A DNA stretch of 55,162 bases from assembly GCA_964404005.1 (NCBI GenBank), contig CAYOIH010000002.1, forward strand, positions 1-55,162, read 5' to 3'. The translations under genes were made by a program, and so were the position numbers. The notes beneath the pieces are model-generated. The model was not told where the DNA came from. It saw only the letters and a list, made by a program, of their open reading frames with translations, and ran no database searches. The stretch comes from an uncultured Candidatus Saccharibacteria bacterium (GTDB taxonomy: Bacteria > Patescibacteriota > Minisyncoccia > Minisyncoccales > Staskawiczbacteraceae). How positions within the stretch are numbered: position 1 is the first letter of the stretch; each line of letters begins with the position of its first letter. This document shows positions 12,678 through 36,308 of this stretch, piece by piece.

Positions 12678-13862
12678 TTAGATTATCGGGACAATGGTCA
12701 CACAATTTGGGACTACTCCGCCGTGGTTTCTTATTTCATCCCACTTTATTTGCAGGGGTCCGGTTTTATTTATGTCGTCTGGCGTAGGAAATTCTTGGCA
12801 CGAATCGTTCATAACACTCTTACACGTTTCCCCAGGACCGGCATAACTGAGTAAAACAAGATAATCTTTGCCTATTTTTATAGATGAAATATTTTCACCG
12901 CTAAGGGTCGGGCACCTTCTGCCGTCACTGGCGCATTTTCCGTCTTTATCATATTTTACGCAACTCTGTTCTTCTTCGGGCACGCCACAATTATTTTTTG
13001 CGGGAGAGGATGCGTCGCAATTACCCCCCATTGTAAAAGTTAAATCATCTAATTTTTTTATATAGAGGCCATTGATTTGAGAGCTTGGGACATAAAAATA
13101 TCCTCCGCAATCGTTAAAAAAAGATTTATGGTAAAAATATACCCCGTCGCCGGAAGGGTCAAAATTGTATTGATAAACAGATGCGGACGAAGCCCCAATT
13201 GGGCTTGGTTGACAGCCGCTTGGGTTGATGTACTGGCATTTTCCTTGAAAATTTATTGTCTCATATAAAATTGATACATAATAAGTGTCGTTATCTATGT
13301 CTGGTACGTTTTTTGCAGAATTTACTTTTTTTCTCAATGATGGCCCCAAATCTTTAGCGCTTGATGTATAAAGCTGGGCTTCTGCACCGGAGCATCCGGC
13401 GTTGTTATATAAATAAACGCCCGGAATTTGTTTTACTGCCGGAGCCGTTACTTCTGCGGCCGGTAATGGCGTTGTGGAGAATGCTTTAAGTTGGGGGTTA
13501 ATAGTGGTTATAATTAAATATGTTGAAACTAAAATTAGCAAACCGGATATTGCTCCCGACACCCTGTCTTTTGCGGCTCCCAGCAAGTCAGATTTTATCG
13601 GGGATAAAGCATACATTACCCCGGCGATAGCCAAAGAAATAAAAACAGCGGCAACGCCGACAAGCATTCCGGCATTAAATAAATATATTGCAAAATCAGG
13701 TAATTTTGTTTCAGGAGTTATGGTTTTTCCGGCTATTGTCGGATAACTTTTTACTTCTAACTCCGCCGCCAAAATTTTGTTTGTAGAAAAGCAAGAAAAG
13801 TTTCCACATAAAAAAACCAGGAAAATAACAGCGAGAATAAATTTTTTATATTTTTTTATCAT
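12678..13862 (-). CDS. Pilin-module fusion protein 4 (VirB2/TrbC-like two-TM N-terminus + Cys-containing extracellular domain)
   Basis: Start moved to MIKKYKKFIL (13862) to avoid overlap with the upstream gene. The order is signal peptide, TM1, loop LGAAKDRVSG, TM2, TINP, Pro-rich linker, then PGVYLYNNAGCSG... shared with the two upstream paralogs. Confidence 0.75.
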   Translation of the reverse strand: MIKKYKKFILAVIFLVFLCGNFSCFSTNKILAAELEVKSYPTIAGKTITPETKLPDFAIYLFNAGMLVGVAAVFISLAIAGVMYALSPIKSDLLGAAKDRVSGAISGLLILVSTYLIITTINPQLKAFSTTPLPAAEVTAPAVKQIPGVYLYNNAGCSGAEAQLYTSSAKDLGPSLRKKVNSAKNVPDIDNDTYYVSILYETINFQGKCQYINPSGCQPSPIGASSASVYQYNFDPSGDGVYFYHKSFFNDCGGYFYVPSSQINGLYIKKLDDLTFTMGGNCDASSPAKNNCGVPEEEQSCVKYDKDGKCASDGRRCPTLSGENISSIKIGKDYLVLLSYAGPGETCKSVMNDSCQEFPTPDDINKTGPLQIKWDEIRNHGGVVPNCVTIVPII

Positions 13863-13875
13863 TGTTAATCTTTTT

Positions 13876-14943
13876 TTATTTCGTCGGGATAATATAAATA
13901 TTTTCAACAGTATACCTGGCCGCGACAAACGGTTGCATATTCAGATTGGCCGCACTAGCGCTAAAAACCTGGCAATATCCCGCGCTATATAGGGCGACCA
14001 AATAATTTCCCTTAATATTTATAGAGCCGGGCCCATATTGGAATGTTCCATATAAACCCTTATATTGCGGTAGTGTTTTTTTAGAATATCCGCAGTTGTA
14101 GGAAGAACCGCCTCCTCCAAAATTCAGGTCGTTGGCCTCTATTTGGAGGATGCCGTTTATTTTATTGTTGCCGACCGTGCAAAAACCTTCTCCCCTGTTT
14201 TGCGCTCCGATATTGTATCCATAAGCTTCGCTATAAAAATCAATTCCAGTTCCACTGGGAGATGTATTATTATTTTTATTCAACGCAAAAATATCAACTG
14301 CATAGGCGCCCGTGCCAACCGGTTGGCAACCTTCGTCTATAATGGGCTGACTGCACGGTCCGACATTTTCCAATCCGGCTACGTTGTGAAAAATCACGCC
14401 GTAATAAATATTATTTGTTTTGTCGTTAATAATTTTAATTGATTTTATTTTTCCGGCAAAGGCGCTGTCTATATGGTCTTGCGAGGAAGTATTTGGGCCC
14501 GAGCTGTCTCCCGCGCAGCCGAGCTGTGTATAATAATAAACGCCCGGAATTATCGGCACTGCAATAGCTGGCGTCTCCGGCAATGGAGTCAGCCTTGGGG
14601 TTACAAGCGCAGGATTAATTGTGTACATAATTAAGTAAGCAGTCATTATTAAAATTAGCCCCAAAATAGCGTCTTTCATTCTGTCTTTTGAATTGCCGGC
14701 CAGTTCTGTGTTGTCGCCCGATATTATTAGGCCAACAGCTCCAATAACAAAAGAGATAAGGGCAATGGTCCCGCCAACAGAAATAGCCCAAGAAAAAATA
14801 AAGGTAATATATTTAGGAAGGTCGGGGTTGTCTCCCAATCCCTTGAGCGGAGACTCTAATGTTATAGCAGAAGCAAAAGCGGCGCTTGAAAAAAGAAAAG
14901 CGTTAGAAAAAGAAAAAAATAATAAAAATTTATTCTTCGCCAT
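13876..14943 (-). CDS. Pilin-module fusion protein 3 (paralog)
   Basis: Signal peptide, LPKYITFIFSWAIS..(TM1)..SGDNTELAGNSKDRMKDA..(TM2)..TINP, linker TPRLTPLPETPAIAVP, then PGVYYYTQLGCAGDSSGPNTSSQDHIDSAFAGKIKSIKIIND. Confidence 0.8.
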   Translation of the reverse strand: MAKNKFLLFFSFSNAFLFSSAAFASAITLESPLKGLGDNPDLPKYITFIFSWAISVGGTIALISFVIGAVGLIISGDNTELAGNSKDRMKDAILGLILIMTAYLIMYTINPALVTPRLTPLPETPAIAVPIIPGVYYYTQLGCAGDSSGPNTSSQDHIDSAFAGKIKSIKIINDKTNNIYYGVIFHNVAGLENVGPCSQPIIDEGCQPVGTGAYAVDIFALNKNNNTSPSGTGIDFYSEAYGYNIGAQNRGEGFCTVGNNKINGILQIEANDLNFGGGGSSYNCGYSKKTLPQYKGLYGTFQYGPGSINIKGNYLVALYSAGYCQVFSASAANLNMQPFVAARYTVENIYIIPTK

Positions 14944-14955
14944 ATTAATTGGCCA

Positions 14956-16110
14956 TTATTTTGTGGGGATTATGTAAACAGAGCCCCTCTTGTCGCCAGC
15001 CTCGCCGGCTTGTGCACTAATTTGTTCAGCGTCTAAGTTTTCAACATCTTTAATAAAGGTTTGGCAATCCGCATATTCGGAGTAGGGAGAAGATAAGCCG
15101 TAGACGGCAACCACATAGCTTCCATTTATTTTTATAGACCCGGGACAATCTTGGAATGTTTCACAGGCATTTTTAGAACAATCTATCCCCTCTTTATTGC
15201 CATCAGCGTCAGCAGACTTAGTGGAATCACATTTGTGTTTATACGCATCCAGTCTGTTAATATTTGTATAATCAAATTTTATATTATAAGTGTACAATTT
15301 GGTGATATTAGATATCTCTGTGTCTGTTATTATTTTTTTACCAGCATTAGCTCCCGTAGTCCAGCCGTATGCTTCACTATAAAAATCCACTCCTGTCCCG
15401 AAAGTATTGGGTGTCTTTTTATTTATTAAAAAAATATCAGCGGCAGAAAGGTTTTCCATGCCAGCACTAAAGTTATAACATTCTGTGGCATCTGTAACTG
15501 GGGAGCTGCAGACACCACCGTTTTCAAGCCCGGGAGTTGCGTGGAAAATAGCGCCGTAATAAATGTCTTTGGCCGGGTCATTAATAATTTTAATTGATTT
15601 TATTTTCCCGGCGAAGGCACTATCTATATGGTTTTGGGAAGAAGTATTTGGTCCAGAGCCGGTTCCTTTACAGTTGGACTCCGTATAATAGAAGACGCCC
15701 GTAATTATCGGCGTTGCAATAGCTGGCGCTGCCGGCAATGGGGTTAGTGTTGGAGTTTTAAATACAGGATTAATTGTAGTTAAAATTAAAAGAGAACAGA
15801 GCGTTAATAGCAACCCCATAACAGCTCCCTTCATTCGGTCTTTTGCATTAGAGCTTGCCTCGGTACTGTCGCCCGATATTATCAAACCAACAGCCCCCAC
15901 AATGAAAGAGATAAGAGAAAGAACCCCGGCAATGGAAATGGCCCAGGAAAAAATAAAGGTAATATATTTAGGAAGGTCGGGGTTGTCTCCTAAACCCAAA
16001 TTCACTTCCATTGCAGAAACGAAACAACCACCGCGAAAAAGAAAAGCGGTAAGAAACATTGAAAATATTAAAAATTTATTTTGCGTTGTTGTACTTTTTT
16101 TATGTCTCAT
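14956..16110 (-). CDS. Pilin-module fusion protein 2 (paralog)
   Basis: Same architecture. It shares a 44-nt identical block (15947-15990 vs 14792-14835) and IKSIKIIND with the downstream paralog; the C-terminal third is divergent. Confidence 0.8.
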   Translation of the reverse strand: MRHKKSTTTQNKFLIFSMFLTAFLFRGGCFVSAMEVNLGLGDNPDLPKYITFIFSWAISIAGVLSLISFIVGAVGLIISGDSTEASSNAKDRMKGAVMGLLLTLCSLLILTTINPVFKTPTLTPLPAAPAIATPIITGVFYYTESNCKGTGSGPNTSSQNHIDSAFAGKIKSIKIINDPAKDIYYGAIFHATPGLENGGVCSSPVTDATECYNFSAGMENLSAADIFLINKKTPNTFGTGVDFYSEAYGWTTGANAGKKIITDTEISNITKLYTYNIKFDYTNINRLDAYKHKCDSTKSADADGNKEGIDCSKNACETFQDCPGSIKINGSYVVAVYGLSSPYSEYADCQTFIKDVENLDAEQISAQAGEAGDKRGSVYIIPTK

Positions 16111-16129
16111 ATTTTTTATTAATTTTTAA

Positions 16130-19123
16130 TTATTGAACAGTAGCTCCCTGAGAGCCAGAAGTTTTTTGATATTGTTGGCAACAAAACCAATTATCCGTTA
16201 AGGGTGTATCAAAAAGGTTTCCCAACTCTTTTCCATAACAATAAGAACTTATATCTTCGTTGTTAAGTGTTGTTTGGCCTGTGGTAATTGGAGATATTAA
16301 TTCGTCTTGAACCCTTGTGCAGTTTAACAGTCTGTTCTTTGAGTCGGAGCTCCTACTTGTCACACTACAATTATTTGTTGTTTGCCTTGAATAAGTTAAT
16401 TCTTTCATAATATCGCTTCTGGGCTCTTTAAGCATAGCCGTATAAAAATCTATAAAATCAAGTTTAAATTGCCGATAATAATCCCAAAGCTCCGCCAAAT
16501 AATCCGTAATTTGCTCACACGGGCTTCCTTTGCACGGATCAAGGATACAACTACAGTATGTATTTCCCTTGTCATCATTCCATTGGCCATATTGGCAATC
16601 GGTTTTACAAATTGGATTACTATTTTCAAATTTTGCGGCGCACCTACAATAATCTTGTACCGGGTTTGTGTCTTTTGCTTTTCCTATTATATACATCTCG
16701 GTAATCATATTTTGGATACTATTTTGCAGTTTGCCTACACTGTTTATTAAATTGTTGGCCCAATTTTCTGCGTTATCAACTGTTTGGCCAACCGGTATTT
16801 CCAACTCGCTGGGACAAACCTTTTCTGTCCCTATCGGCGTTACTCCGCTTTTTTCTCTATTTGGGTCTAACCACCAGTTATCCTGGCAATAAAAAGTTAA
16901 TGGATCATCATTTTGAGAATAACTATTACACTGAGGCCCAACCATTTGATAGGCGGAAAACGGCTGTTCTGTTGTATAGTAATTATCTTCGCCCGCAACC
17001 TTTTGGAAACTTTCTACTGGAATATAAAATTTTAAGGCCGTGTCTATCTGGTCGCATGGGCAACCCGGGCAATTAGAAGATGTTGGGCATTTTGCGGTTT
17101 CAGGATATATATCTTGGCATTTTCCACCACCAGTCAGTGAGGCGTATGGGTTTTTGCATTTTTGGCATTCGGGGTTTTCGTAAAAGAAGGATGCGGAGTT
17201 ATCTCCGGCTGAACACTTGCTGAGTCCGGGCGTAGCGCAATCCGGGTAGCCGGCATATTCATTAGACCCGTTTTTGCACAAATAAGCATTATTAATGCAG
17301 AAAGCTGTATTACCTTGGTCAGTAGTTGAGTCTGCGCAATTTTTAAATCCTTGTCCGCCAAATAAACAAACATCGGCGTTATTTATAACGCACTGTGAAT
17401 TATTTGCGCTTTGTTCTTCGCAAAAATCATACTCATTAGAACACGCTAAATATTTTTTTTCGCAGTCGCTTGCCTTCCCTCCCTGGCAGGCAGTTAAGCA
17501 ACCTGCGAAAGTTTTGGTATTCGATGGGTCCGGGGCAGCCGGGCATGGCCTTTCTTGGTAAGCCTCTTTGGCGGCTTTATCCAGGCACACCGTATCATCT
17601 TCTGCGCACTTGCCGGTTTTTTGTTGATAAAGCCCGACAGCATTGTCGCTTGTGTCCGGGCACATATCATTGCACGTTTTTAAACAGTTAGAATTATTAT
17701 AATTAAATCCTGCGCAATATTTTGATACGCTTATCGGCTTGCTTGCTGCGGGGTCATAAAATGTTTCCGGGTTGATTGAAATAAGCCGTTGTGTGTTGTC
17801 TGTGGTCTCGCGGGTTTTAATAAGGTCAAGATAAGGCATTGCCATATAGCAACTGTTTAATGTGTGCTTTGCCCTATCCAGCTCATTTTCGTCGGCTTGG
17901 ATTTTACTGTCTGTTGGCCAATTAGCTATTTTTTCTTTAAAGTATGTTTCTTGCTGTATAAGATTTAGTAATTTCCATTTGCTTTGGTCAATTAATATAA
18001 TTGTTTTATTGTCTATTCGAATTTGTTTTTCAACCCAGCCCGGTATGCCATAACACGGAGTTTGGATTTTTCCATCATTAGGATTTGGGCACCTGAATTC
18101 GTCTAGTCCTTTATATCCTCTTTCCTCGGTCAAACAGGCTCCGGCGGCGCCGCTGCTTGAACCGACATCAACAGACAAGAGTATATCTCCGTGTTCGATC
18201 TGATTTCTAACTCCATCGGGGCAACAGTCTTTTGTCGGTGGCTTACAGGCGCCACCTACGCAAGCCCCTATACACGCACCGGGGACATATCCGGGGCAAT
18301 TATTAATTGCATACGGCGTTTTCGTTGTAGAAAGGTCGCATCCGCCGTTTAACGGGTCGCAGACAGGATCGCATTTGCCCACGCAAGAGCATTGGTTCAT
18401 CAGTTTAGTTATCTCGTCGGACAGCCCGGCGATTATTTGTCCTTTTTTTTGGGCGCCGTCGGCCAGTTGCGTTAAACAGTCTGCTCTGTCGTGGTTTAAA
18501 TAAGTCGGGCCGGATATATAGCATTTGCCGCTGTTTTTATCGCATGTTTGTCCTTCGGGACAACCGGAAAAAAATCCGCAGTCCCCTGTTATTATTTTAT
18601 CTCCGGCGGCGGGATTTCCTTCCGGGTCAAAGCCATAACAATTCATAGTCCTTGTTAAAAGATTTTCAGTTAAAGTCCCAATAGGAATTTCTTGGTAGGT
18701 GGCTGTCGGAATGCCGGATTGAGAAGGGGTGGCATTCTTACTGGAAGAGTTAATGCCGGGCAGTGATAAAACCCCCATTTTACAGCTGGTTAGGTCGGGA
18801 TTAATTGTGCGGGCGATTAAAATCGCGCACACGGTTATTAAAAGTCCAAGGATTCCGGCTTTTATCCACTCTTTTGCTTCGCTTGTAAATTTCCCTCTCC
18901 CGTAAGAAACCAAATAATAAATTCCGCCAAAAACTATTGAAAGAACAGCTATAGTAACAGCTAAATTCATTGCCAAACCGAGAAGATAACAGACATATGC
19001 GCCAATGTCCGGTTTATTCCCTAGTCCCGGTAGTGGCACTTCTAAAGCTAAAACAAAACTGGCGTTTAATAGAAAAACGCAGTTTAAAAAAAGAGCCCAG
19101 AAAAATTTTTTACAAAAGACCAT
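16130..19123 (-). CDS. Pilin-module fusion protein 1: two-TM pilin-like N-terminus + ~860-aa extremely cysteine-rich extracellular domain
   Basis: N-terminus: signal peptide, TM1 ..AVTIAVLSIVFGGIYYLV, loop GKFTSEAKEWIKA, TM2, TINP. The remainder is hydrophilic with dense Cys motifs (CSCVGKCDPVCDP, CIGACVGGACKPPTKDCCPDG, CPGCPCDQ). 997 aa uninterrupted. Confidence 0.8.
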   Translation of the reverse strand: MVFCKKFFWALFLNCVFLLNASFVLALEVPLPGLGNKPDIGAYVCYLLGLAMNLAVTIAVLSIVFGGIYYLVSYGRGKFTSEAKEWIKAGILGLLITVCAILIARTINPDLTSCKMGVLSLPGINSSSKNATPSQSGIPTATYQEIPIGTLTENLLTRTMNCYGFDPEGNPAAGDKIITGDCGFFSGCPEGQTCDKNSGKCYISGPTYLNHDRADCLTQLADGAQKKGQIIAGLSDEITKLMNQCSCVGKCDPVCDPLNGGCDLSTTKTPYAINNCPGYVPGACIGACVGGACKPPTKDCCPDGVRNQIEHGDILLSVDVGSSSGAAGACLTEERGYKGLDEFRCPNPNDGKIQTPCYGIPGWVEKQIRIDNKTIILIDQSKWKLLNLIQQETYFKEKIANWPTDSKIQADENELDRAKHTLNSCYMAMPYLDLIKTRETTDNTQRLISINPETFYDPAASKPISVSKYCAGFNYNNSNCLKTCNDMCPDTSDNAVGLYQQKTGKCAEDDTVCLDKAAKEAYQERPCPAAPDPSNTKTFAGCLTACQGGKASDCEKKYLACSNEYDFCEEQSANNSQCVINNADVCLFGGQGFKNCADSTTDQGNTAFCINNAYLCKNGSNEYAGYPDCATPGLSKCSAGDNSASFFYENPECQKCKNPYASLTGGGKCQDIYPETAKCPTSSNCPGCPCDQIDTALKFYIPVESFQKVAGEDNYYTTEQPFSAYQMVGPQCNSYSQNDDPLTFYCQDNWWLDPNREKSGVTPIGTEKVCPSELEIPVGQTVDNAENWANNLINSVGKLQNSIQNMITEMYIIGKAKDTNPVQDYCRCAAKFENSNPICKTDCQYGQWNDDKGNTYCSCILDPCKGSPCEQITDYLAELWDYYRQFKLDFIDFYTAMLKEPRSDIMKELTYSRQTTNNCSVTSRSSDSKNRLLNCTRVQDELISPITTGQTTLNNEDISSYCYGKELGNLFDTPLTDNWFCCQQYQKTSGSQGATVQ

Positions 19124-19168
19124 CGCCCTGTTGCGTTTTTAAAATTTTTTAAATTCCAATATCCAATC

Positions 19169-20971
19169 CTATGCGGATTCTAAATTCCTTTTCACAGCCC
19201 TGTTTTGCATAACTTCTTGAGGATTAGTTGTGATTATTTGGTTTTCAGTCTGGCTGGCAACAACCGCCAAATAAACGTGTTTTCTTCCGGCAAAAAACAA
19301 TCCTTCTCCGACCGCCGCCTCAATCAATAAATATTTTTCTTGTTCAGTTAATTGGAAAGTTTTTTGTACAACATCAATATCAGCCGAAGATTGTTTCATT
19401 AATAATTGCAAAGACGAGTTTGTGATAATTGCCCGGCCGTAATCAGACCTCATAAAGTCGGCTACGTCCTGGGTGATAGTTGTAACTCCCAGCCAATATT
19501 TTCTCGCCCTTTTTACTAATCCAAAAAGGAAAGAGGCTCCGTCGTCAGACTGCATCAGCCACCACGCCTCATCAATGACCAAAATTCTCTTTTTCAACTT
19601 TGACCTGACCATATTCCAAATATACCTCATAATAATATATAGGGCGATCGGCCTTAATGATTCTTCCATATCTCGTATCCCAAAAACAACAAAACTTTTT
19701 TCTATGGAAATATTCGATTGCTGGTTAAAAAAATCAGAAAAAGTTCCTTTGGTAAATTTTTTAATCCGATTAACTAAAGATCCTGTTCCCGTCATACTTT
19801 CCAAAATTTCCTGGAAGTCAGACATTAAAGGAGTATTATTAGCCCATGTTTTTGGGTCTGATTCAGAAGTGATATCTCTTACAGCATAGGTTTCCGTAAG
19901 CGCTTCATCCAAAATACTGTCCTCTTCGGGCGTCAACCCGCCCAGCATAATTCTTAAAAGTCCGACCAAGTTTATCACATTAGACCTTAAAATATCTTCC
20001 GGGTTATCGTCCGGGCCGGGAAGAGGCAAATCAAACGGGTTTAAATGGTTTGGCGAAGTTAAAGAAATTTTTAAAAATGCTCCGCCCACCGCATCCGCCA
20101 AAAATTCATACTCATTTTCCGGGTCAATAATTATGCAATCAACTCCCTGCATTAAATATCTTAAAATTTCCAGCTTTATCGCAAAAGATTTTCCGGAGCC
20201 GGATTTCGCAAAAACCACCATATTAGCGTTTTCCAAACTGAATCTGTCAAATAAAACCAAAGAATTATTATGCCTGTTGACGCCGTATAAAATCCCTTCA
20301 TTAGAGCTCAAGTCAAAAGAAATAAATGGGAAGCAAGTTGATAATGGGCCTGTATCCATTGGAGTGTGAACTTCTATCAAATCCATACCGTAAGGGCTAC
20401 AGGAAATAAATCCTTCTTTCTGTTTATACAAAGCCGGTTTTATATAAATTAATCTGGATTCAAAAATTGACCTTAATGTAAGTTCCACGTCTTTTAATTC
20501 TTTTTCTGAATTTTCATAAACCGTTATATAAAGCCCGAATCTGAACATTTTTTCCTGGGCGGTCATTAAATTATCTCTAAGAGTTTCAATGTCCTGATAT
20601 GCTGTCTGTAGAGCGGGATCTCTAATCAGCCCCTTTTCTTCCCTTTCTAAAACCTCTGAAGAAACTTCTGTAATTTTTTTTCTTAATTTTTTTAAAATCA
20701 GCTCCGAGCTTACAGGATGTATAAAAAATGAAATATCTACTGGAGTGTTTAAATCAATAACCGGAGAAAACCAGCCCGTATTTAAATATCGGGGATAAGA
20801 AAAAACAAAAAAAGATTTAGCGAATCTTTCCCCCAGTTTTATGTGGTCTTGAGTTACTCCAATATATGGCGGAGCGATAATATCCCTTACATCAAACTCC
20901 TCTTCCTGAAAAAGTTTTTCTTCCGCCAGATTTTCCTGTTTTTTTCCTAAAAGATTGTCTAAAAATTTCAT
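19169..20971 (-). CDS. virB4: VirB4/TraC/TrbE-family type IV secretion ATPase
   Basis: Walker A VVFAKSGSGKSFAIK, Walker B RILVIDEAWWLM, and an N-terminal region with the pattern (..FVFSYPRYLNTGWFSPVIDL..DISFFIHP) seen in conjugative VirB4-like ATPases of Gram-positive-type systems. Confidence 0.85.
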   Translation of the reverse strand: MKFLDNLLGKKQENLAEEKLFQEEEFDVRDIIAPPYIGVTQDHIKLGERFAKSFFVFSYPRYLNTGWFSPVIDLNTPVDISFFIHPVSSELILKKLRKKITEVSSEVLEREEKGLIRDPALQTAYQDIETLRDNLMTAQEKMFRFGLYITVYENSEKELKDVELTLRSIFESRLIYIKPALYKQKEGFISCSPYGMDLIEVHTPMDTGPLSTCFPFISFDLSSNEGILYGVNRHNNSLVLFDRFSLENANMVVFAKSGSGKSFAIKLEILRYLMQGVDCIIIDPENEYEFLADAVGGAFLKISLTSPNHLNPFDLPLPGPDDNPEDILRSNVINLVGLLRIMLGGLTPEEDSILDEALTETYAVRDITSESDPKTWANNTPLMSDFQEILESMTGTGSLVNRIKKFTKGTFSDFFNQQSNISIEKSFVVFGIRDMEESLRPIALYIIMRYIWNMVRSKLKKRILVIDEAWWLMQSDDGASFLFGLVKRARKYWLGVTTITQDVADFMRSDYGRAIITNSSLQLLMKQSSADIDVVQKTFQLTEQEKYLLIEAAVGEGLFFAGRKHVYLAVVASQTENQIITTNPQEVMQNRAVKRNLESA

Positions 20972-20990
20972 AAAGATAAAAATATAAAAA

Positions 20991-21653
20991 CTATTTTAAA
21001 AGCTCGGGTAGGATTTCCGGGTAATATCCGATCTCGGCTTGGTCGGGGTGGTGTATCGCCCAAAAAAGTTCTATGAGTTCCGGTGTTGTTAATGGCACAG
21101 ACTCTAATCCACATCTTCTCAGCCCCATTGATAAATATTCCATTCTCTGCCAGAGCTGGGTTTTGCATCTTTGGAATTCATCGTCTTTCATCGGCTGATT
21201 TTGTGGGGTCGCGCCCGGAAGCTTTAAAAAACTGAATTGTTTTGACATTCCTTTCATGCCTAATATTTCCATCAAATTATATGGGACGACAACATAAAAG
21301 TTTTTTGTCATAACCATATCCCCCACAACCATGTTTTTTATAAATTCTCTGTAAGAAGCTGTTTGTTCCCTTAATAACGAGTTGGTTTGTCTCTCTTCCA
21401 AATCTTTTAACCCGTCTAAATAAGGAGTAATATTTATATTTCTTGATTGGATAACTATCTGGCAGAAAAAATCTAAAGAATTTAAAAAACTTTGGAAAGC
21501 ATAAATTATGGCGGTTTGTTCTTCTTCTGACTTCAACGCAAAATTTATTGAAGAGACCATTAAAATTCCCCTTATAGAATTATTTTTCAGAAGCAAAACT
21601 CCCTCCCTTATATCTTGTATTTCTAAAAATGCTTGCGTGGCTGATTCGGCCAT
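20991..21653 (-). CDS. T4SS-associated 220-aa protein (resembles a VirB4/TrbE N-terminal domain; function unknown)
   Basis: Tightly packed between the PrgI-like gene (12-nt gap) and virB4 (19-nt gap). The pattern DIREGVLLLKNNSIRGILMVSSINFALKSEEEQTAIIYAFQSFLNSL...QIVIQSR recalls the pre-ATPase domain of VirB4/TrbE proteins. Confidence 0.55.
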   Translation of the reverse strand: MAESATQAFLEIQDIREGVLLLKNNSIRGILMVSSINFALKSEEEQTAIIYAFQSFLNSLDFFCQIVIQSRNINITPYLDGLKDLEERQTNSLLREQTASYREFIKNMVVGDMVMTKNFYVVVPYNLMEILGMKGMSKQFSFLKLPGATPQNQPMKDDEFQRCKTQLWQRMEYLSMGLRRCGLESVPLTTPELIELFWAIHHPDQAEIGYYPEILPELLK

Positions 21654-21665
21654 AGTAACCTTTCT

Positions 21666-22073
21666 TTATTTTGTTTTTAATTCTACTTGTGTTTTTATTC
21701 TTTTCAGTTGGCTTGTCTGGGCCTGCAAAACAGGGCCTTGTTCTATTTTTCTAATCTGAGTCCTTTGGATAGGTTTAAACGGATAAGGAGACTCTGCTTT
21801 CTTCCAAACATAATTTTTTCCGCCCATCGAAAAACCAATCGCCCCTAAAATCATATTTAAAATTGGCACACCGTTTATTGTTGCAAAGGCGAGTATCCCC
21901 GCTCCGGTAAAAAGCAATAAAGCCACCATATAAAAAATAATCTTTGGTAAAATCCAATATAGAAAAAAGCAAATAACGCCGGCTCCCACCAGATAGAAAA
22001 ATTGTCGGAAAGATATAAAGAAAGCAATTTTACTTTCTTGCTCAATAAATTGTGGTATAGGATATTGTTCCAT
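21666..22073 (-). CDS. PrgI-family / VirB3-like small membrane protein
   Basis: Start placed at MEQYPIPQFIEQESKIAFFISFRQFFYLVGAG (22073). This motif plus two TM helices matches the PrgI (VirB3-analogue) architecture of Gram-positive T4SSs. The upstream 48 codons of the listed ORF overlap the promoter region. Confidence 0.65.
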   Translation of the reverse strand: MEQYPIPQFIEQESKIAFFISFRQFFYLVGAGVICFFLYWILPKIIFYMVALLLFTGAGILAFATINGVPILNMILGAIGFSMGGKNYVWKKAESPYPFKPIQRTQIRKIEQGPVLQAQTSQLKRIKTQVELKTK

Positions 22074-22092
22074 AATATTTATAAGTTTATTT

Positions 22093-22122
22093 ATTATACC
22101 ATGCATAAAAAAGTACAGACAA
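22093..22122 (-). promoter_or_regulatory. Putative promoter of the T4SS-like operon (TTGTCT-18-TGgTATAAT)
   Basis: The minus strand reads ttgtct gtacttttttatgcatgg tataat. The extended -10 TGn is present, and -10 ends 19 nt before the ATG at 22073. Confidence 0.5.
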
Positions 22123-22139
22123 CAACAGTTCTCAACACC

Positions 22140-22168
22140 TTGACAAGGGTGTTTTAATATGATATAAT
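22140..22168 (+). promoter_or_regulatory. Consensus sigma70 promoter (TTGACA-17-TATAAT) for the SPFH gene
   Basis: ttgaca (22140-22145), 17-nt spacer, tataat (22163-22168). A leader hairpin gtgcgg-gtgta-ccgcac follows, then SD aggag (22236-22240) 7 nt before the ATG. Confidence 0.75.
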
Positions 22169-22247
22169 AAATATAGTAAGAACATTGTAAAAAACAGCGA
22201 GTGCGGGTGTACCGCACAGCTGTCAGCGCAATATTAGGAGAAGACCC

Positions 22248-23402
22248 ATGAGTAGTTTATTTACAGCTTTTCTGTGGAACTTGTTACTGGTGGTCGGAGT
22301 CCTTGTAATCGGATATTTGATTGTTTTGGGGTTGGCCAGGACCAACATCCTGTTCACTCGCGTTGAACAGGGCTGGTGCAAGATCATCCTGAGGTGGGGA
22401 AAATATGCAAGGACAATTGGGCCTGGCTTGCGATGGTTCGGAATTCCCGGCATGCACACTTTTTACCGGAAAAAGATGACGTTTTTGAAGAGCATGACCG
22501 AGCCGGACGGCACACCTAAAGCCGAGCCCCATCCCCGCGAGAATGAAAAGGACGGGGGTATTGTTGGTAGTTTTAAGACCACTCGGTACCCCTACGCCCT
22601 TCCCTTCAAGGACGAAGAAGACAGTCGTGCGCTACCCCTGTCAGGCGTTCTGGCGGTGTTCGGCGTCATAGAGGATTATAGGGCAGCCTTTTTTGACGCA
22701 GATGATTGGTACGCCGAAATGAACACTAGAATTCTGGCGTGTTTCCGCGACCTTATCGCCGAGATTTCGTACGACGACGACATCGTCGGACGAGACACGA
22801 AAAGAGAGCAGGCCCTAAAGACCATTAGTGTGCGGCTGTGGGAAGAGCTGAATTCCGAACAAAACGGCAACCCTTCGATACTCGATGAGTTGTATGTTGC
22901 CGCCGGAATCTGGGTTGAGTCAGTGGTGTTGAGAAGTATTGACCCCCCAGAAGGTTATCGGGCGACCACTCTCGCTCCCTACATGGCGCAAAGGGCGAAA
23001 GAGGCTGCCAAGTATCAGGCAGAGACCAGTGCCGTGTTGTTTAACGATACCAACCTGGCCCTGAAAAAGTGGCTAGCCAGTCACAAGAACGCCACGCAGT
23101 CCCAGATTGAAGCTAAGCAAAACGAGCTTCGCCAACGGGCCCTGGCGAAGACCAACGGTTACCAGCAGATTGATGTTAAGGGCCTCGAGAACGCTACCAC
23201 CGCGGTCGTCGGCGGAGGTGGCGCGGGCGTTATGGTCGGTGCCGGCGGTAAAAATCCGCAACCAGCACCGGGCCAGGGTAATAAAGGAGGTAAAAGACAA
23301 GAAGACAAGACGGATGAGGAATTGGCGGAAGAATTCAAAAAGCGTAGGGGAAAATATCCTCCGGGATATAATCCCGCCACGAAGTCTTTCGGCAATTCAT
23401 AG
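22248..23402 (+). CDS. SPFH/band-7 (stomatin-prohibitin-flotillin-HflK/C) domain membrane protein with Gly-rich basic tail
   Basis: N-terminal TM, then VEQGWCKIILRWGKYARTIGPGLRWFGIPGMH (the SPFH entry motif v.eg...v..r.Gk....gPGl.f..P). C-terminal coiled-coil and GGGGAGVMVGAGG tail. Visibly G+C-richer than the flanks. Confidence 0.75.
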   Translation: MSSLFTAFLWNLLLVVGVLVIGYLIVLGLARTNILFTRVEQGWCKIILRWGKYARTIGPGLRWFGIPGMHTFYRKKMTFLKSMTEPDGTPKAEPHPRENEKDGGIVGSFKTTRYPYALPFKDEEDSRALPLSGVLAVFGVIEDYRAAFFDADDWYAEMNTRILACFRDLIAEISYDDDIVGRDTKREQALKTISVRLWEELNSEQNGNPSILDELYVAAGIWVESVVLRSIDPPEGYRATTLAPYMAQRAKEAAKYQAETSAVLFNDTNLALKKWLASHKNATQSQIEAKQNELRQRALAKTNGYQQIDVKGLENATTAVVGGGGAGVMVGAGGKNPQPAPGQGNKGGKRQEDKTDEELAEEFKKRRGKYPPGYNPATKSFGNS

Positions 23403-23407
23403 TAAAA

Positions 23408-23442
23408 GGGCGGGCACAATTTGTGTCCGCCCGTTTTTTTTT
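23408..23442. terminator. Bidirectional intrinsic terminator
   Basis: gggcgggcaca-att-tgtgtccgccc followed by a T9 run, between convergent SPFH gene and ORF 23448-24047. Confidence 0.8.
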
Positions 23443-23447
23443 ATTTT

Positions 23448-24047
23448 TTATCCAATTGGTTCACGGTATCTGTCGAGTCCGCTCTTTTTTGGCAAATTGG
23501 TTATGTCCAAATCTTTTGTTTTGCCACGAGAATTTTTATCAGGTTTTTTAGGCATAATAGACTGCAGGTTGTTTGTTTGTGATACTTTAGTATTTTGGCG
23601 CTCTTCTTTTAACAGCTTGCCGTTCTCTTCGACATCCATAAAATCCGGCATTTTTTCTGTTTTAGCGACAGTGCCACCTTGTGGAGTTTTTTCACCCCAA
23701 AGCTTTTCTGCCATTTCATCTACAAATGCAGGGTCTGATAATTTTTCTTCAGGGATTTTTTCTAAAAACGGCACAATATTTGTTATTATCTCATTAGTTA
23801 TTTGCTTCGCAACATCTCCGGAAACCCCCAAATCTTTTTGTAATAAACTCGGTAAATCTTTTTCAGATAAATCCCCTGCGGCTAAATTTTTTGCTATGCC
23901 GTCAATAACGGCTATTTTTGCCGGTTTTTTTTCTGTCCCTCTTTTCTCGTATTCCTCGGGAGTTTCTTGCAGAGTGAATTTTTCCATTATCTTATCAAGC
24001 GCTGCATCTGCTTTGGCGCTAAAAACTATACGTATTTTGTTATCCAT
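23448..24047 (-). CDS. Hypothetical 199-aa soluble protein downstream of the VirB6-like gene
   Basis: Uninterrupted ORF 26 nt after the 24074-26086 gene. Charged and helical, with no recognisable motif. Confidence 0.6.
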   Translation of the reverse strand: MDNKIRIVFSAKADAALDKIMEKFTLQETPEEYEKRGTEKKPAKIAVIDGIAKNLAAGDLSEKDLPSLLQKDLGVSGDVAKQITNEIITNIVPFLEKIPEEKLSDPAFVDEMAEKLWGEKTPQGGTVAKTEKMPDFMDVEENGKLLKEERQNTKVSQTNNLQSIMPKKPDKNSRGKTKDLDITNLPKKSGLDRYREPIG

Positions 24048-24073
24048 AGAAATTATAAATTAGTTAAAAAAGA

Positions 24074-26086
24074 TTATGGCCTTCCGCCCGCGGGGGGTGG
24101 CGCAGGTGGCGTAGGCGCAGGCCTTCCGCCGGCAGGAGCGGTGCGTCCATATAATGACCCACCTATCAATCTGCCCAAAGAATCTGCAAGCTTATTTAAT
24201 CTATTCGCTTCTTGAGTGTCTTGAGCTCGCCCCGCCGCTCCTGCGGCGGCGCGTATCGCCGGTTCAAAACTGGAAAGTTGGTTTTGTGTTGCCCCGGGCG
24301 CTAATCTGGCTTTGCGTATATCTGAAGTGCTCATCTCTGAAACCAGATTTGGATCCAGGTGCCTTCCTTCAACTCTGCTCCATTGTCCCGCAGACATTCC
24401 TTTATGTACATTTTCAGAAAGTTGGTTTTGGCTAGCTCTGTGCGCTTCTTCTGCTGTGCCACCGCGCGCCAATACCTCCTCTCCGGCCAATTGATAGTTC
24501 TTCTCACGGGCTTTTTTGCCTATATCTGTGGCCCCCATACTCTCCGCGCGTCTAAGTTGTGTGTGTGCTGCACTCCAGTTTGTTGTCCCGTCAGGGTTTC
24601 TAAATGCTTCATGCAAATCTCCTGCTTCGTTTACGGCCATAAGGGCTGCGGCGCCTTTAAATCCTCTATCTCTCCTCGCCCGCCCCTGTATTCTTTGCAT
24701 AGCACCAGTATCGCCTCGTGCTTTTGCGGCATTATATTCGGCAGTAACGCCCTTTGCTTCAGTATCAACGCGGGAGTTTTCTTTCATCGCAGTGGTTCCT
24801 TCACTGCGCAAGCCAATTCTTTCCATCATCCTGCCGGTGGATGAACTTATTGCCCGTCCTACGTTAGACACCCTGTTTCCTGTCATTTTGTCTGCTATTT
24901 TGGCGCCTCTCTTAAGTGCCCCACCCGCTGCTCCCAGCGCAAGCCCAGCCGCTCCGCCCGCTATTCCCATAATAGCGCTAGATACCATTGGTGCCACAGA
25001 GCTGACCATTTTATATCCGATAAAAAGGAAGATAAAAGCAACAAACAAAACATTAAAATCTACGGCACCATTTGCCGCGGTCATTATGGTCACGGCTAAA
25101 TAAATAAAAAACGCAGCGCCGACTCCTATAAAAGACCATTTAATAAAATTATCCGACCACTTAGTCCATAATTTTTTTGTTGGAGGGAATATCCAAAAAG
25201 CAAAAGCCAAAGGAGACAGTATAAAAAGCACAGCAAGTACGGCGTATCTTGCAGCGAGTAAAAGAGCCATGAGTGCAAGCGAGTAAGCTGCTATTATTTC
25301 AAAGATAGCTACGCTAGCGCACAAACCTAAATATGCCGCTGGATTTATCGCCGAGGTAGTTGCACCCGGGCCACCAGGAGCACTTTTTTTTGTATTAGCC
25401 GCCACATCAATTTCTTCTCCCTTGAGCGTACTTGCCGCATAATCGTTGATAGTAGCAGATAGACCAATAACCGATTCGCTGGTTTTGTTTCCCCCCAGTA
25501 AACCATTCATTGTTATGTTCCCAGTGTCAATAATTAGCCCACAAAACAAGCCTGAAAAATTAACAAAAAGAGCCACAACTATTAATTTCCACAAAAGCTG
25601 TTTTGCTGCGTATTCTCTAATTCTCAAACTTGTGGCCACGCCCACAACGATAAAACCTAAAACAATAAGCATATCAGCAATATTTCGAACCTGTGCCCAT
25701 GCTAATTTAAATGTTTCGTTTCCTGTAATGGTCTGCTGGTTGAATGACGGGCTTGTGACATAAGATAAAAATTGAGAAGCATATTGAAAAAGGCTGCTTG
25801 CGATTGAGATAAGAAGCGTTCCAAGTCCAACAAGTAAGTCGCTAAAAAAACCCTGTGTCCCAGATTTAATGTCGGATTTGACTGAATAATATCCCCATAC
25901 GGCTAACCCCGCAGCGACTACACCAGTAATAATCAGGGCGGTGCCAGAAATCACAAGGCCACGTTCTTTATTTTCGGTATCAAAAATTGGCGATAAAAAA
26001 TCTTTAAATTTTCCACGAGTTATGTAATATTTTATCAGTATATTTTCAGAAAAAGATGAGACTTTTTTCGTAATTTTTTTAATCAT
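24074..26086 (-). CDS. Polytopic (about 9-10 TM) membrane protein, VirB6/TrbL-like by topology and context, with ~280-aa hydrophilic G+C-rich C-terminal extension
   Basis: Successive hydrophobic segments through residue ~390. The tail is rich in A/G/R and ends in GRPAPTPPAPPPAGGRP. It lies adjacent to the VirB3/VirB4/pilin operon. Confidence 0.5.
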   Translation of the reverse strand: MIKKITKKVSSFSENILIKYYITRGKFKDFLSPIFDTENKERGLVISGTALIITGVVAAGLAVWGYYSVKSDIKSGTQGFFSDLLVGLGTLLISIASSLFQYASQFLSYVTSPSFNQQTITGNETFKLAWAQVRNIADMLIVLGFIVVGVATSLRIREYAAKQLLWKLIVVALFVNFSGLFCGLIIDTGNITMNGLLGGNKTSESVIGLSATINDYAASTLKGEEIDVAANTKKSAPGGPGATTSAINPAAYLGLCASVAIFEIIAAYSLALMALLLAARYAVLAVLFILSPLAFAFWIFPPTKKLWTKWSDNFIKWSFIGVGAAFFIYLAVTIMTAANGAVDFNVLFVAFIFLFIGYKMVSSVAPMVSSAIMGIAGGAAGLALGAAGGALKRGAKIADKMTGNRVSNVGRAISSSTGRMMERIGLRSEGTTAMKENSRVDTEAKGVTAEYNAAKARGDTGAMQRIQGRARRDRGFKGAAALMAVNEAGDLHEAFRNPDGTTNWSAAHTQLRRAESMGATDIGKKAREKNYQLAGEEVLARGGTAEEAHRASQNQLSENVHKGMSAGQWSRVEGRHLDPNLVSEMSTSDIRKARLAPGATQNQLSSFEPAIRAAAGAAGRAQDTQEANRLNKLADSLGRLIGGSLYGRTAPAGGRPAPTPPAPPPAGGRP

Positions 26087-28168: not shown

Positions 28169-29317
28169 TTGTTAAAACTACTTACTAAGGCTCTAACAAA
28201 AATAAAGGAGAGTTGCCACCCGGCTAAGACTGTGCGCGGGGGCACCAATCAAAAAAGGCTATTGAAAAATCCTTTGTTTTATTTTGCATTAGTTTCTGTT
28301 GTTTTGTTTTGGGGAATGTGCGCGTCTTGTGGGAACTCGGCCGGCGCGGGAAATCTTAACGGCAACCATGTTGCTTTTTTTAATTCATTTTTTAGCAAGT
28401 CGGGCGGCCTCAACGGTGACAACTTATTTTTTAGTAAAGCCAGCGCAATTGCGTTAGAAACTCCGGATTTGAAAATAATACAAAATAATACCGTGGGCGG
28501 GATATCGGCTCCCTCAATTGTTTCGGGAAAAACCTTAGGAGATGTGTTTGGTGGAACCATCCAGGATAAAAAAAATGTAGCTGATTATACGGTACAGCCT
28601 GGAGATACTTTGCAATCGATTGCAGACGCTTATGGGATATCGGTTAATACATTACTCTGGGCAAATAGCCTCACAAGTTCTTCTGTAATTAAAGTTGGCC
28701 AAAGTTTAATTATTTTGCCCACAGATGGAGTTTTGCATGTTGTAAAATCCGGGGACACTGTTTCGGGAATTGCGCAAACATATAAATCGCAGGTAAATGA
28801 TATTATTTCTTACAACGATTTAGCCACTCCGGACGTTTACATTGGAGATATTTTAATTGTACCGGGAGGTACAATGCCCAAAGCGAAGGTGGCAACTCCT
28901 ATTATAAATAATAACCAAGTTCCTCTGGCCAGCAATTATTTTATATTCCCAACTCAAGGAAGAATAACACAGGGGCTTCATTATTATAATGCCATTGATG
29001 TCGCAAATAGTTGCGGAACGTCCGTTTATGCGGCGGCTTCCGGCAAGGTGCAAAGGGCCGTTTACAACAACGCTTGGAATGCGGGTATGGGAAATTATGT
29101 TACAATTTTGCATCCTAACGGCACAGCTACTTATTATGGTCACCTCTCTAATGTTTTTGTAAAACCGGGCGACCCAGTTACTCAAAGCGACAGGATCGGC
29201 TTAATAGGCAACACAGGAAACGTGGTCGGTGCAACTGGATGCCACCTGCACTTCCAGGTTATTGGAGCTACAAATCCTTTGGCGAAATATCCTGTCGGAA
29301 CAAAAATCCATTATTAA
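28169..29317 (+). CDS. LysM-domain M23 family metallopeptidase (start codon uncertain: TTG 28169 or GTG 28232)
   Basis: N-terminal TM. Two LysM repeats (YTVQPGDTLQSIADAYGISVNTLLWAN; HVVKSGDTVSGIAQTYKSQVNDIISYN). M23 motifs HYYNAIDV and GNTGNVVGATGCHLHFQV. Confidence 0.88.
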   Translation: MLKLLTKALTKIKESCHPAKTVRGGTNQKRLLKNPLFYFALVSVVLFWGMCASCGNSAGAGNLNGNHVAFFNSFFSKSGGLNGDNLFFSKASAIALETPDLKIIQNNTVGGISAPSIVSGKTLGDVFGGTIQDKKNVADYTVQPGDTLQSIADAYGISVNTLLWANSLTSSSVIKVGQSLIILPTDGVLHVVKSGDTVSGIAQTYKSQVNDIISYNDLATPDVYIGDILIVPGGTMPKAKVATPIINNNQVPLASNYFIFPTQGRITQGLHYYNAIDVANSCGTSVYAAASGKVQRAVYNNAWNAGMGNYVTILHPNGTATYYGHLSNVFVKPGDPVTQSDRIGLIGNTGNVVGATGCHLHFQVIGATNPLAKYPVGTKIHY

Positions 29318-29789: not shown

Positions 29790-30908
29790 TTATTTTCTGC
29801 GGGGCAACGGAACTGGCGGAATCGAAGGCGACCGTGCGCCTGCTTTAGGTATTGGCACTTCAATTATTGGCGCTGCGGGCATTTCTTGTTGTTGCGCCCG
29901 CTGAAATTTTTCTCTTGACGAACTTCCCACGTCCTGCAAAAATTTTCTTCTTTGTTCTTCTTCGGCTTCGCCCGATTTTAATATTTTTTCTCTTACACTA
30001 ACCGGCGCCTTGCTTAAGTATCCTCCATCCTCTGTTCTCTTCTTTGCTGACGGCGACCATTGCTGCCTTTGTATTTTTTCATTTTGTTGCGCCCTTGCCA
30101 CTGCTAAGACTTCTTTTCTGGCAACTTGATCTTGAGCCAAACCCCTTCTTTTGTCTTCTTCGCGCGCCATAACGGCAGAATAAATTTCCCTTAGCGATTT
30201 ATCTGTGCCCAAAACTTTGTCCTGAAGCCCATTTTTTTCTATGATATTTTGCTCTGAAAACCCGTCTATCTGGCTTACTTTTTTGTCAGTATCTTCTATT
30301 TGTTTTTCCGCCTCCCATCTTTTTTTCTCCACTTCTTGTATTTTTTTATCCAAATCCCATCTTGCTTGTTCTAAACCTTTTCTTTCAGAAGCGATAGTTG
30401 TTGTCTGCTCTTTTTCTGTGATAACTTTTTGTTCTCCTTCCAGCTTTTTTTCCTGCTCTAAAATTTGGCTTAACACCTCTTGCTGTCCGCGTTTTAAGAG
30501 CAGTAGTTTATTTTTTTCTAATTTGAGCGCCGGCTCTTTTTCTTTGTCTATTGCGTCAATCTGTTTTTCAAAACCAAGCCGTTCTGATTCGAGTAAAAAT
30601 ATCTGCTGGCGTTCTTGTTCGGTGGCATAGTTTTTTAGATCTTTTTCGGCAATTCTTTCTTGCCCTTCGTTTCTTTGTAAAACGTCATCTAGCCCGGCCT
30701 TGTCAGCCGCTGCGGTTTCGGCGTCTTTTATTTCCAATTTTTTTTGTTGTTCTACCCTTTGCTCTTCTAGCGTTTTTATTTTAACAATTTTATCTCTTTC
30801 TTTTAACGAATCAGCCTCTCTCAATTTTGAGAGGTCTTTTTTCATCGTCCTGATTTCCGCCCGTTTCAGAAATTCCTTAGCTTGTGTTTCTTCGTCTACA
30901 GTTACCAT
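29790..30908 (-). CDS. K/E/Q-rich coiled-coil protein with Pro-rich C-terminus (hypothetical)
   Basis: 372-aa uninterrupted ORF with heptad-like charged repeats and tail PAAPIIEVPIPKAGARSPSIPPVPLPRRK. Confidence 0.6.
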   Translation of the reverse strand: MVTVDEETQAKEFLKRAEIRTMKKDLSKLREADSLKERDKIVKIKTLEEQRVEQQKKLEIKDAETAAADKAGLDDVLQRNEGQERIAEKDLKNYATEQERQQIFLLESERLGFEKQIDAIDKEKEPALKLEKNKLLLLKRGQQEVLSQILEQEKKLEGEQKVITEKEQTTTIASERKGLEQARWDLDKKIQEVEKKRWEAEKQIEDTDKKVSQIDGFSEQNIIEKNGLQDKVLGTDKSLREIYSAVMAREEDKRRGLAQDQVARKEVLAVARAQQNEKIQRQQWSPSAKKRTEDGGYLSKAPVSVREKILKSGEAEEEQRRKFLQDVGSSSREKFQRAQQQEMPAAPIIEVPIPKAGARSPSIPPVPLPRRK

Positions 30909-30926
30909 TGTTTATATAATGTTGCT

Positions 30927-34825: not shown

Positions 34826-34828
34826 AAA

Positions 34829-34862: not shown

Positions 34863-34916
34863 CGTTGCTAAATTAATGTTAGCATACTATACGCCCGTGT
34901 CAATAGCAAGGTTAAT

Positions 34917-36294: not shown

Positions 36295-36308
36295 ATATAT
36301 AGGCCTTG

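Follow-up and report, generated by a model that had tools for sequence, protein, structure and literature searches.

In this study, we analyzed a 55,162-nucleotide stretch of DNA from an uncultured member of the Patescibacteriota (contig CAYOIH010000002.1, positions 1-55,162, assembly GCA_964404005.1; the whole stretch is referred to below as the window). It is a low-GC (~39%) piece of core chromosome, and the genes between positions 12678 and 26086 very probably encode a Patescibacteria-type, chromosomal and relaxase-less type IV secretion system (T4SS) in its Paceibacteria (Staskawiczbacteria-like) form. The one under-described feature of this locus is the fusion of its pilin modules to large ectodomains. 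The best overall explanation, which combines such a T4SS with a mechanism that displays the pilin-ectodomain fusions, has in our estimate a probability of roughly 0.65. The display and assembly of the fused pilins, taken as a separate proposal, appears to have somewhat less than an even chance of being correct.

A survey of Patescibacteria that included Staskawiczbacteria (Quiñonero-Coronel et al. 2025; PMC12102498) assigned their VirB4 proteins to a clade that is specific to Patescibacteria and is related to the MPF-FATA systems (MPF, mating-pair formation) of monoderms, and inferred an origin of these T4SS from monoderm conjugative systems. Genes for TrsD, PrgI/VirB3, VirB6 and VirB2-like proteins lay nearby, the VirB2 genes in arrays of 2-11; relaxases were near-absent, and dnaA, dnaN, ksgA, rnpA and rpmH were close, especially in Paceibacteria. 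VirB1-type hits with LysM/M23 domains were also linked to virB4 in Paceibacteria. In that work VirB2 hits were treated as small proteins and C-terminal domains were not mentioned; its supplementary tables give the coverage of hidden Markov models (HMMs) without protein lengths. In S. epibionticum, transposon sequencing (Tn-seq) identified the T4SS genes, pilin genes included, as essential when the bacterium grows as an epibiont (Wang et al. 2023; PMC10633639), and the corresponding cluster, SEML1_0006-0019, contains six small pilins encoded by genes of ~380-420 bp. The role of the Patescibacteria T4SS has been called unknown in reviews (PMC11665869, PMC12857230). The locus itself is therefore nothing new in kind, because a publication of 2025 already covered where such systems occur, how they originated and their closeness to oriC. 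A preliminary description of this DNA, made without database searches, had held that the gene set lacks a characterised counterpart; this has to be withdrawn, since the set is published as the Patescibacteria T4SS (PMC12102498) and its Saccharibacterial version is essential (PMC10633639).

Motor, channel and chromosomal setting

The minus strand between 12678 and 26086 carries nine genes, and a tenth gene lies on the plus strand. From 5' to 3', the minus-strand genes encode a VirB6/TrbL-like polytopic protein of 670 aa (24074-26086), a 199-aa soluble partner directly 3' of it (23448-24047), a PrgI/VirB3-like small membrane protein of 135 aa if read from the ATG at 22073 (21666-22073), a TrsD-like, free-standing homologue of the VirB4 N-domain (220 aa, 20991-21653), a VirB4 ATPase of 600 aa (19169-20971) and four pilin-module proteins. 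Profile searches in Pfam and NCBIfam confirmed the order PrgI/VirB3, VirB4-N-like protein and VirB4 that had been proposed earlier.

The VirB4 protein matched the NCBIfam model conju_CD1110 with 364 bits (cutoff 325) over model positions 161-732 of 752. It also matched P-loop_TraG (106 bits) and AAA_10 (44 bits), and has a Walker A (GSGKS) and a Walker B (VIDEAW) motif. On the basis of these profiles, it is an ATPase of the monoderm CD1110/MPF-FATA-like type. An FtsK/HerA identity, against which the assignment was checked, could be ruled out, as HerA/DUF87 reached only 33 bits compared with 364 bits for the VirB4-type model. Because the match begins at model position 161, the polypeptide has no N-terminal membrane/VirB3-interacting domain of its own. 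The 220-aa protein matched TraC_F_IV at positions 14-175 (25 bits, Pfam) and three NCBIfam models, namely TrsD (NF041427; 30 bits and E 3e-7, below the cutoff of 200), VirB4_plasma at positions 106-213 and CD1110 at positions 11-100. These matches to the N-terminal region of VirB4 models, together with the position of the gene, suggest a TrsD-type split, in which the 220-aa protein represents the VirB4 N-domain. PrgI, encoded two genes 5' of virB4, has hydrophobic segments and matched PF12666 with 32.5 bits (Pfam gathering threshold 27).

A survey of synteny across Patescibacteria covered the best 80 of at least 585 VirB4 relatives in the GTDB species set. These 80 proteins were 54-91% identical to VirB4 of the window, with the top one (91%) in Candidatus Staskawiczbacteria, and nearly all came from genomes labelled as Patescibacteria (Staskawicz-, Nealson- and Kerfeldbacteria, Paceibacterota) or from unclassified metagenome-assembled genomes. 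The order that recurs in these 80 loci, which come from different species, is lysM-M23(-), ksgA, [ICMT], VirB6-like, [199 aa], [SPFH(-)], PrgI, TrsD, VirB4, one to four pilin-module genes, jag(-), yidC(-), dnaA and dnaN. VirB4 itself was counted in 78 of the 80 loci, a TrsD-like gene between prgI and virB4 in 77, PrgI directly 5' of the TrsD-like gene in 72, a pilin module directly 3' of virB4 in 64 and a VirB6-like gene in the same position in 51. In the window, the locus has dnaN, dnaA, rnpA, yidC and jag as direct neighbours, so that the earlier observation of its adjoining the oriC core genes was correct.

Hydropathy analysis of the 670-aa protein revealed 8-10 hydrophobic segments in residues 45-364, followed by a hydrophilic tail. 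Since the protein itself has no Pfam or NCBIfam match, the VirB6 assignment was made through its homologues, 17 of 42 of which match PF04610 (TrbL/VirB6; best E 4e-10); the profile of the family also matched R388 TrwI/VirB6 in PDB weakly (E 0.18). By transitivity, we accept it as a probable member of the VirB6 family. Its C-terminal third (window 24074-24800) is hydrophilic and rich in Ala, Gly, Arg and Pro, with the final residues ...PAPTPPAPPPAGGRP, and this region lifts the local GC content to 0.46-0.48. The homologues range from ~580 to 1570 aa and differ in length mostly in the tail. The 199-aa protein showed no Pfam or NCBIfam match and, by hydropathy, no transmembrane (TM) segment, and could not be assigned to a family; it is very divergent, and its gene was detectable at the same position in 19 of the 80 loci.

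The plus-strand gene (22248-23402) encodes an SPFH/Band_7 membrane protein (PF01145, E 1e-6) with one N-terminal TM segment. It is positioned between the 199-aa and PrgI genes, as in 10 of the 80 loci. It is preceded by a perfect promoter-like sequence (TTGACA-17-TATAAT, 22140-22168, plus strand), and a GC-rich hairpin terminator (23408-23432; 11-bp stem with 8 GC pairs, then a T-run) separates it from the convergent 199-aa gene. Back-to-back with the SPFH promoter, the promoter-like site proposed earlier for the PrgI-to-pilin operon was found at 22093-22122 on the minus strand (TTGTCT-18-TATAAT with a TG-extended -10), 20 nt 5' of the PrgI ATG at 22073. TGATATAAT, an extended -10, lies ~20 nt 5' of the ATG of the VirB6-like gene. 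Given an opposite-strand SPFH gene with its own promoter and terminator, the cluster consists of at least two transcription units. The preliminary description had rightly placed the VirB6-like and 199-aa genes upstream on the same strand, but had overlooked the SPFH gene in between. Its spacers of 12-19 nt were likewise roughly right except in one place: in the PrgI-to-pilin unit they measure 12, 19, 45, 19, 12 and 10 nt, the 45-nt gap being that between virB4 and the gene of the 997-aa pilin-module protein. The SPFH protein may be associated with the T4SS.

We searched the window open reading frames (ORFs) of at least 100 aa for a relaxase, a type IV coupling protein (T4CP) or an integrase and found none. 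The same was true for ~9-10 kb beyond either window end, and no repeats bounding the locus were present across the ~75 kb covered in total. The earlier statement that relaxase, VirD4 coupling protein and integrase are missing is upheld over this wider region, whereas its companion, that there is no VirB1 analogue, is not, because a syntenic LysM-LysM-Peptidase_M23 wall hydrolase (28169-29317, plus strand; LysM E 6e-28 and M23 E 7e-24 in Pfam) had been overlooked. This gene occupies the same position in 28 of the 80 loci, and its product is a candidate functional analogue of VirB1-type proteins.

These data bear on whether the locus could be an integrated conjugative element (ICE), whether whole or decayed to a remnant, and still transfer DNA. 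VirB4, PrgI, TrsD and VirB6 are conjugation-type proteins, and a monoderm conjugative origin has been inferred for them (PMC12102498). However, no relaxase, T4CP, integrase or bounding repeat appears in the ~75 kb, the context between ksgA and jag/yidC/dnaA is identical in many species, and VirB4 is conserved as much as DnaA. The fixed position in the core genome across species argues against a mobile element. We regard the ICE hypothesis as ruled out by gene content and synteny, with hardly any probability left to it. The locus derives from monoderm conjugation machinery. We read it as an episymbiont's envelope machine that is chromosomal, T4SS-derived and domesticated rather than conjugative, a reading supported by the synteny conserved across species, by the protein families assigned and by the absence of genes for DNA processing. 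This was also the view of the preliminary description and agrees with the published interpretation.

Pilin modules and their fused ectodomains

The four genes 3' of virB4 encode proteins of 997 aa (16130-19123), 384 aa (14956-16110), 355 aa (13876-14943) and, from the ATG at 13865, 395 aa (12678-13865), all on the minus strand. Each was predicted by hydropathy to start with a signal-like segment and two TM helices, and the pattern K...GL...TINP is invariant in an alignment of the four modules. T4SS_pilin (PF18895) scored above its gathering threshold in two of them (384-aa protein, 30.1 bits; 355-aa protein, 32.6 bits), and all four modules matched an HMM built on the modules of related loci at E <= 1e-31, including the 997-aa (E 2e-34) and 395-aa (E 7e-34) proteins. 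The isolated module of the 997-aa protein matched T4SS_pilin with an E-value of 6e-4. No Pfam match was obtained for the 395-aa protein; its module and C-terminal domain align with those of its paralogues, and its orthologues come last in order in related loci. Thus hydropathy, alignment and the module HMM agree with the earlier claim of four successive genes that each begin with a signal peptide and a two-TM pilin module.

Scanning with the module HMM also identified a small stand-alone VirB2/TrbC-like pilin of 140 aa (35872-36294, minus strand), which the preliminary description had missed; it is ~10 kb from the cluster, with two tRNA-Arg genes on one side and a tRNA-Lys gene on the other. 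It matched T4SS_pilin (E 9e-4) and, over nearly the full model length, TrbC/VirB2 (E 1e-3), both below threshold. Its relatives comprise 1682 cluster representatives at E <= 1e-3, the top ones mostly of 80-200 aa; in a sample of 80, T4SS_pilin was matched by all 80 and TrbC/VirB2 (PF04956) by 36 (best E 3e-11). When the fused N-terminal modules were compared with this small-pilin family by hhalign, with window sequences taken out of both profiles, the probability was 98.9% (E 2e-17). A search of the pilin-module profile against PDB sequences returned chance membrane-protein matches and no solved pilin, so that the link to VirB2 rests on the Pfam families and hhalign. On this evidence, the modules are VirB2/TrbC-type pilin hairpins as judged from sequence relationships, and the relation to VirB2/TrbC proposed earlier holds. 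Some relatives of the small pilin (P0309, P0346 and P0413) are 606-933 aa long and contain 6-7 tandem pilin modules per polypeptide, which is a further unusual pilin arrangement.

None of the operon proteins has the small, hairpin-only size of ~70-120 aa; they are 355-997 aa long with folded ectodomains, and only the 140-aa gene is of the small type. The AlphaFold2 (AF2) model of the 355-aa protein (69 homologues; mean predicted local distance difference test, pLDDT, 88.7) begins with a signal helix and a hairpin (42-74 / 79-109), from which a Pro-rich linker of low confidence leads to a β-domain (134-355, pLDDT ~97). Foldseek matched this β-domain to two-domain γ-crystallins (E 3e-4, probability 1.0, TM-score 0.6-0.65 target-normalised), and single-domain matches included Protein S and clostrillin. 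The predicted structure therefore has two βγ-crystallin domains (134-355) in a paired Greek-key arrangement. The 384-aa protein, which is 49% identical to its 355-aa paralogue, and the 395-aa protein, which is more divergent, are by sequence paralogues of the same hairpin-plus-βγ-crystallin architecture. No Pfam Crystall match was found in the window proteins, and the isolated ectodomains gave no Pfam or NCBIfam match.

The model of the 997-aa protein (63 homologues; pLDDT 85, pTM 0.80) comprises a signal peptide, a hairpin (~40-113), a disordered linker (117-135) and a mixed α/β, disulfide-rich ectodomain of about 850-880 residues. The protein contains 68 Cys residues, many of which are invariant across the family, and its model found no fold match in PDB by Foldseek (best E 1). 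It has at least 157 homologues, some with an additional Peptidase_M23 domain.

Other species provided 75 pilin-module proteins, 64 of which match T4SS_pilin. Most of their C-terminal regions are matchless; the remainder include SLT (2), Peptidase_C39_2 (2), Crystall (2) and Peptidase_M23 (1), with further matches to InlB B-repeat, SpaA-type, LTD, Ig and fn3 domains. The pilin-module ORFs that phmmer identified in related loci were 133-2095 aa long, with a single one below 230 aa; scanning with the module HMM added a few in which the extension at the C-terminus is short, and some of these are cut off by the end of a contig. Fusion to a large and fast-evolving ectodomain thus seems, with few exceptions, to be the rule in this clade for pilin modules next to VirB4. 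A Peptidase_M23 domain is fused onto a pilin-module protein at L039:12324-13952 and in a 550-aa ORF of L043, and the homologues P0201, P0274, P0277, P0285 and P0297 have an M23 wall hydrolase as part of the 'pilin'. Our literature search (pilin with crystallin; candidate phyla radiation with VirB2 and C-terminal domain) retrieved no description of a pilin-ectodomain fusion. Of the earlier statement that neither the gene set nor the pilin-domain fusions have a characterised counterpart, the part on the fusions therefore stands, whereas the gene set is published.

The four large proteins might instead be ordinary membrane-anchored surface proteins, encoded among co-regulated envelope genes, in which the hairpin is only an anchor that VirB4 does not handle. 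At 355-997 aa, they are far larger than the VirB2 pilins known to polymerise, their ectodomains resemble adhesins or enzymes, and polymerisation is only a prediction. On the other hand, the module shows specific homology to pilins of the VirB2/TrbC type, it follows virB4 directly in 64 of the 80 loci (with window spacers of 10-45 nt), and the pilin genes of the homologous S. epibionticum cluster are essential along with the T4SS (PMC10633639). This explanation is thus quite unlikely in our view.

A different role for the hairpin is suggested by the TINP motif, which is invariant in the four modules of the window, conserved among fused modules from related loci and absent in the small-pilin family, and which is followed by the low-confidence linker. 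The hairpin could be a carrier or pro-domain that is extracted in a T4SS-dependent manner and cut near the TINP/Pro-rich junction, either with release of the ectodomain as a secreted effector or with loss of the C-terminal extension in a maturation like that of RP4 TrbC. C-terminal trimming of TrbC/VirB2 is established biology, and the cargo in other species includes wall hydrolases. Still, the cluster contains no protease gene, and an N-P helix cap with a Pro-rich linker would equally fit a simple structural hinge. Cleavage of this kind seems to us improbable, even more so than the use of the hairpin as a mere anchor.

The nearest species (L001, L057) were used to measure identities. They were 91% for VirB4, 90% for DnaA, 85-86% for the TrsD-like protein, 73% for PrgI, 41-59% for the pilin modules, 33-48% for the ectodomains, 35-51% for the VirB6-like protein and 26-38% for the 199-aa protein. 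The cytoplasmic parts VirB4 and TrsD are thus as conserved as DnaA, and pilin modules, ectodomains and VirB6-like protein are far less so in the same genome pairs. A slowly diverging motor with a rapidly diverging surface is the pattern expected if the surface parts meet a host.

Proposed function of the apparatus

In our preferred explanation, the pilin-module proteins would be exported by Sec, with the signal peptide cut near a conserved A|LE site, and would then sit in the membrane as helical hairpins with both ends outside. A motor of VirB4, TrsD and PrgI would dock on the VirB6-like platform and extract the hairpins, which would be assembled into a short filament or an envelope-spanning stalk. 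The 140-aa stand-alone pilin, a candidate for the bulk filament subunit, could supply most of the subunits, while the four fused pilins would be minor or tip subunits that hold their ectodomains outside on flexible Pro-rich linkers. There, the βγ-crystallin and disulfide-rich ectodomains may act as adhesins or as modules for host-surface recognition, and the whole apparatus would serve host-cell contact and exchange rather than conjugation. The solved structures of F- and T-pili have both ends of the pilin pointing to the outside, so that the geometry would allow a domain fused to the C-terminus to be displayed.

Several points weigh against this explanation. The filament or stalk is predicted, and the T4SS of Paceibacteria is known from genes alone. 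A domain of 250-880 residues on each subunit may clash sterically with a VirB2-type helical filament, in which case the fused proteins may not polymerise at all. The connection of the 140-aa pilin to the machine would have to span ~10 kb, and its matches to Pfam are sub-threshold. The VirB6-like protein itself, as noted above, matches no Pfam or NCBIfam family, and no VirB8-like or coupling protein, which would bear on substrate recruitment, was found. Finally, the fast divergence of the surface parts could also be due to relaxed constraint.

Transport might also run inward, the apparatus being an import conduit for host DNA, nucleotides or other macromolecules (like ComB of H. pylori or the archaeal Ced system), with the fused pilins serving only for docking. 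Such a function has been proposed by the authors of PMC12102498 and PMC11665869, the lineage is reported in the literature to be without nucleotide biosynthesis, and VirB4 weakly matches the DNA-import ATPases CedB and CedD (E 9e-13 and 4e-5). However, these matches are confined to the shared P-loop region and far below cutoffs, the cluster contains no DNA-binding or DNA-processing component, and the direction of transport is not readable from sequence. We therefore consider import unlikely, though less so than the anchor or carrier roles of the hairpin discussed above; it is compatible with the preferred explanation, and the two are not exclusive.

Display of ectodomains by fused pilins may also extend beyond the window. 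It is conceivable, although we hold this more general proposal to be slightly less probable than the display mechanism in the window itself, that in Paceibacteria and their relatives the VirB2-type hairpin is a general N-terminal module that couples large, fast-evolving ectodomains to the VirB4/VirB6 machine, and that adhesins and wall-cutting enzymes decorate the T4SS filament or stalk or sit at its tip. If true, T4SS pili would have a use not described before, and host attachment and breaching would have a concrete mechanism. In this large and uncultivated clade, the hairpins carry adhesin-like or hydrolase-like domains that evolve several-fold faster than the motor, which points to host recognition and wall penetration over DNA transfer as the task of the external part. 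It also offers a lead on the question, stated as open in reviews, of what job the essential Patescibacteria T4SS does, and specific proteins are now available to label, model or express.

Other features of the window and comparison with known systems

The cumulative GC-skew minimum and a switch in gene orientation were observed at ~36.0-36.6 kb, away from dnaA (9132-10487), so that the origin of replication may be ~26 kb from this gene. Both fall at a block of tRNA-Arg, tRNA-Arg, small pilin and tRNA-Lys genes and a divergent gene for a CCA-adding enzyme (35800-36600). Scanning for DnaA boxes as a sign of oriC gave 22 matches compared with 13.7 expected, and no cluster. Genes of the competence or type IV pilus type are also present in the window: a PilB-like T2SSE ATPase (45-866; truncated at the window start and 450 aa in L081), a ComEA-like protein with HHH_3 and LTD domains (2891-3856) and DprA (40995-41924). 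A ComM-type Mg-chelatase-like ATPase is split in two ORFs (41940-42896 and 42900-43475), with the same split in an independent assembly (L083); this could be a real interruption, recoding or a shared assembly feature.

Two genes between those for PNPase and the LysM-M23 peptidase (29790-31718) have no family matches. One encodes a highly charged, coiled-coil-like protein of 372 aa, found beside pnp in 6 related loci, and the other a 263-aa protein with one N-terminal TM segment and a secreted domain. Further genes include two neighbouring NYN-domain genes (predicted RNases; 34250-35420, minus strand), a small SET-domain protein (38480-38854) with a predicted methyltransferase fold that is unusual in bacteria, and a HicB/HicA toxin-antitoxin pair (~51070-51560; L083 8181-8650) with trigger factor on one side and a 160-aa membrane protein on the other.

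With regard to known systems, the ectodomain predicted for the 355-aa protein can be superposed on two-domain γ-crystallins and on single microbial βγ-crystallin domains (Protein S, clostrillin and Flavobacterium 3hzb) at ~8-16% identity, and no fusion of these to a pilin hairpin was found described in the literature. The ICE of Mycoplasma likewise belongs to a wall-less or monoderm lineage and has a pilin-like protein beside VirB4, but it is mobile; matches to it were weak and far below cutoffs (the 384-aa module to Mbov_0395 with E 4e-3, and VirB4/TrsD to Mbov_0397). Pili of the Gram-negative VirB, Trw and F types share with the modules described here a signal peptide and two hydrophobic helices with a short basic loop, a family-level link through PF04956 (TrbC/VirB2), and a probable VirB6-family partner. 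In contrast with these pili, no characterised VirB2 comes near the fused proteins in length, which are 3-8 times longer, and VirB5, VirB7, VirB9, VirB10 and VirB11 are absent.

Monoderm MPF-FATA systems (Prg/Pcf of pCF10, Trs of pGO1 and CD1110) share the CD1110-type VirB4, the PrgI family, a TrsD-like protein and the lack of an outer-membrane core. They differ in that a relaxase, a coupling protein, a VirB8-like protein and a PrgB-type adhesin were not detected here, in that the present locus is core-chromosomal and not on a mobile element, and in that it has VirB2-type pilin modules, which Gram-positive systems are without (PMC12857230). The closest resemblance is to the published T4SS of Patescibacteria (PMC12102498, PMC10633639), which have the same component set and the same PrgI-TrsD-VirB4 order and are likewise chromosomal, by dnaA, dnaN, ksgA, rnpA and yidC, and without relaxase. 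In comparison with these, an SPFH gene divides the cluster here, and, unlike in S. epibionticum, all four pilins of the operon carry ectodomains of 230-880 residues and the sole small pilin is encoded ~10 kb away.

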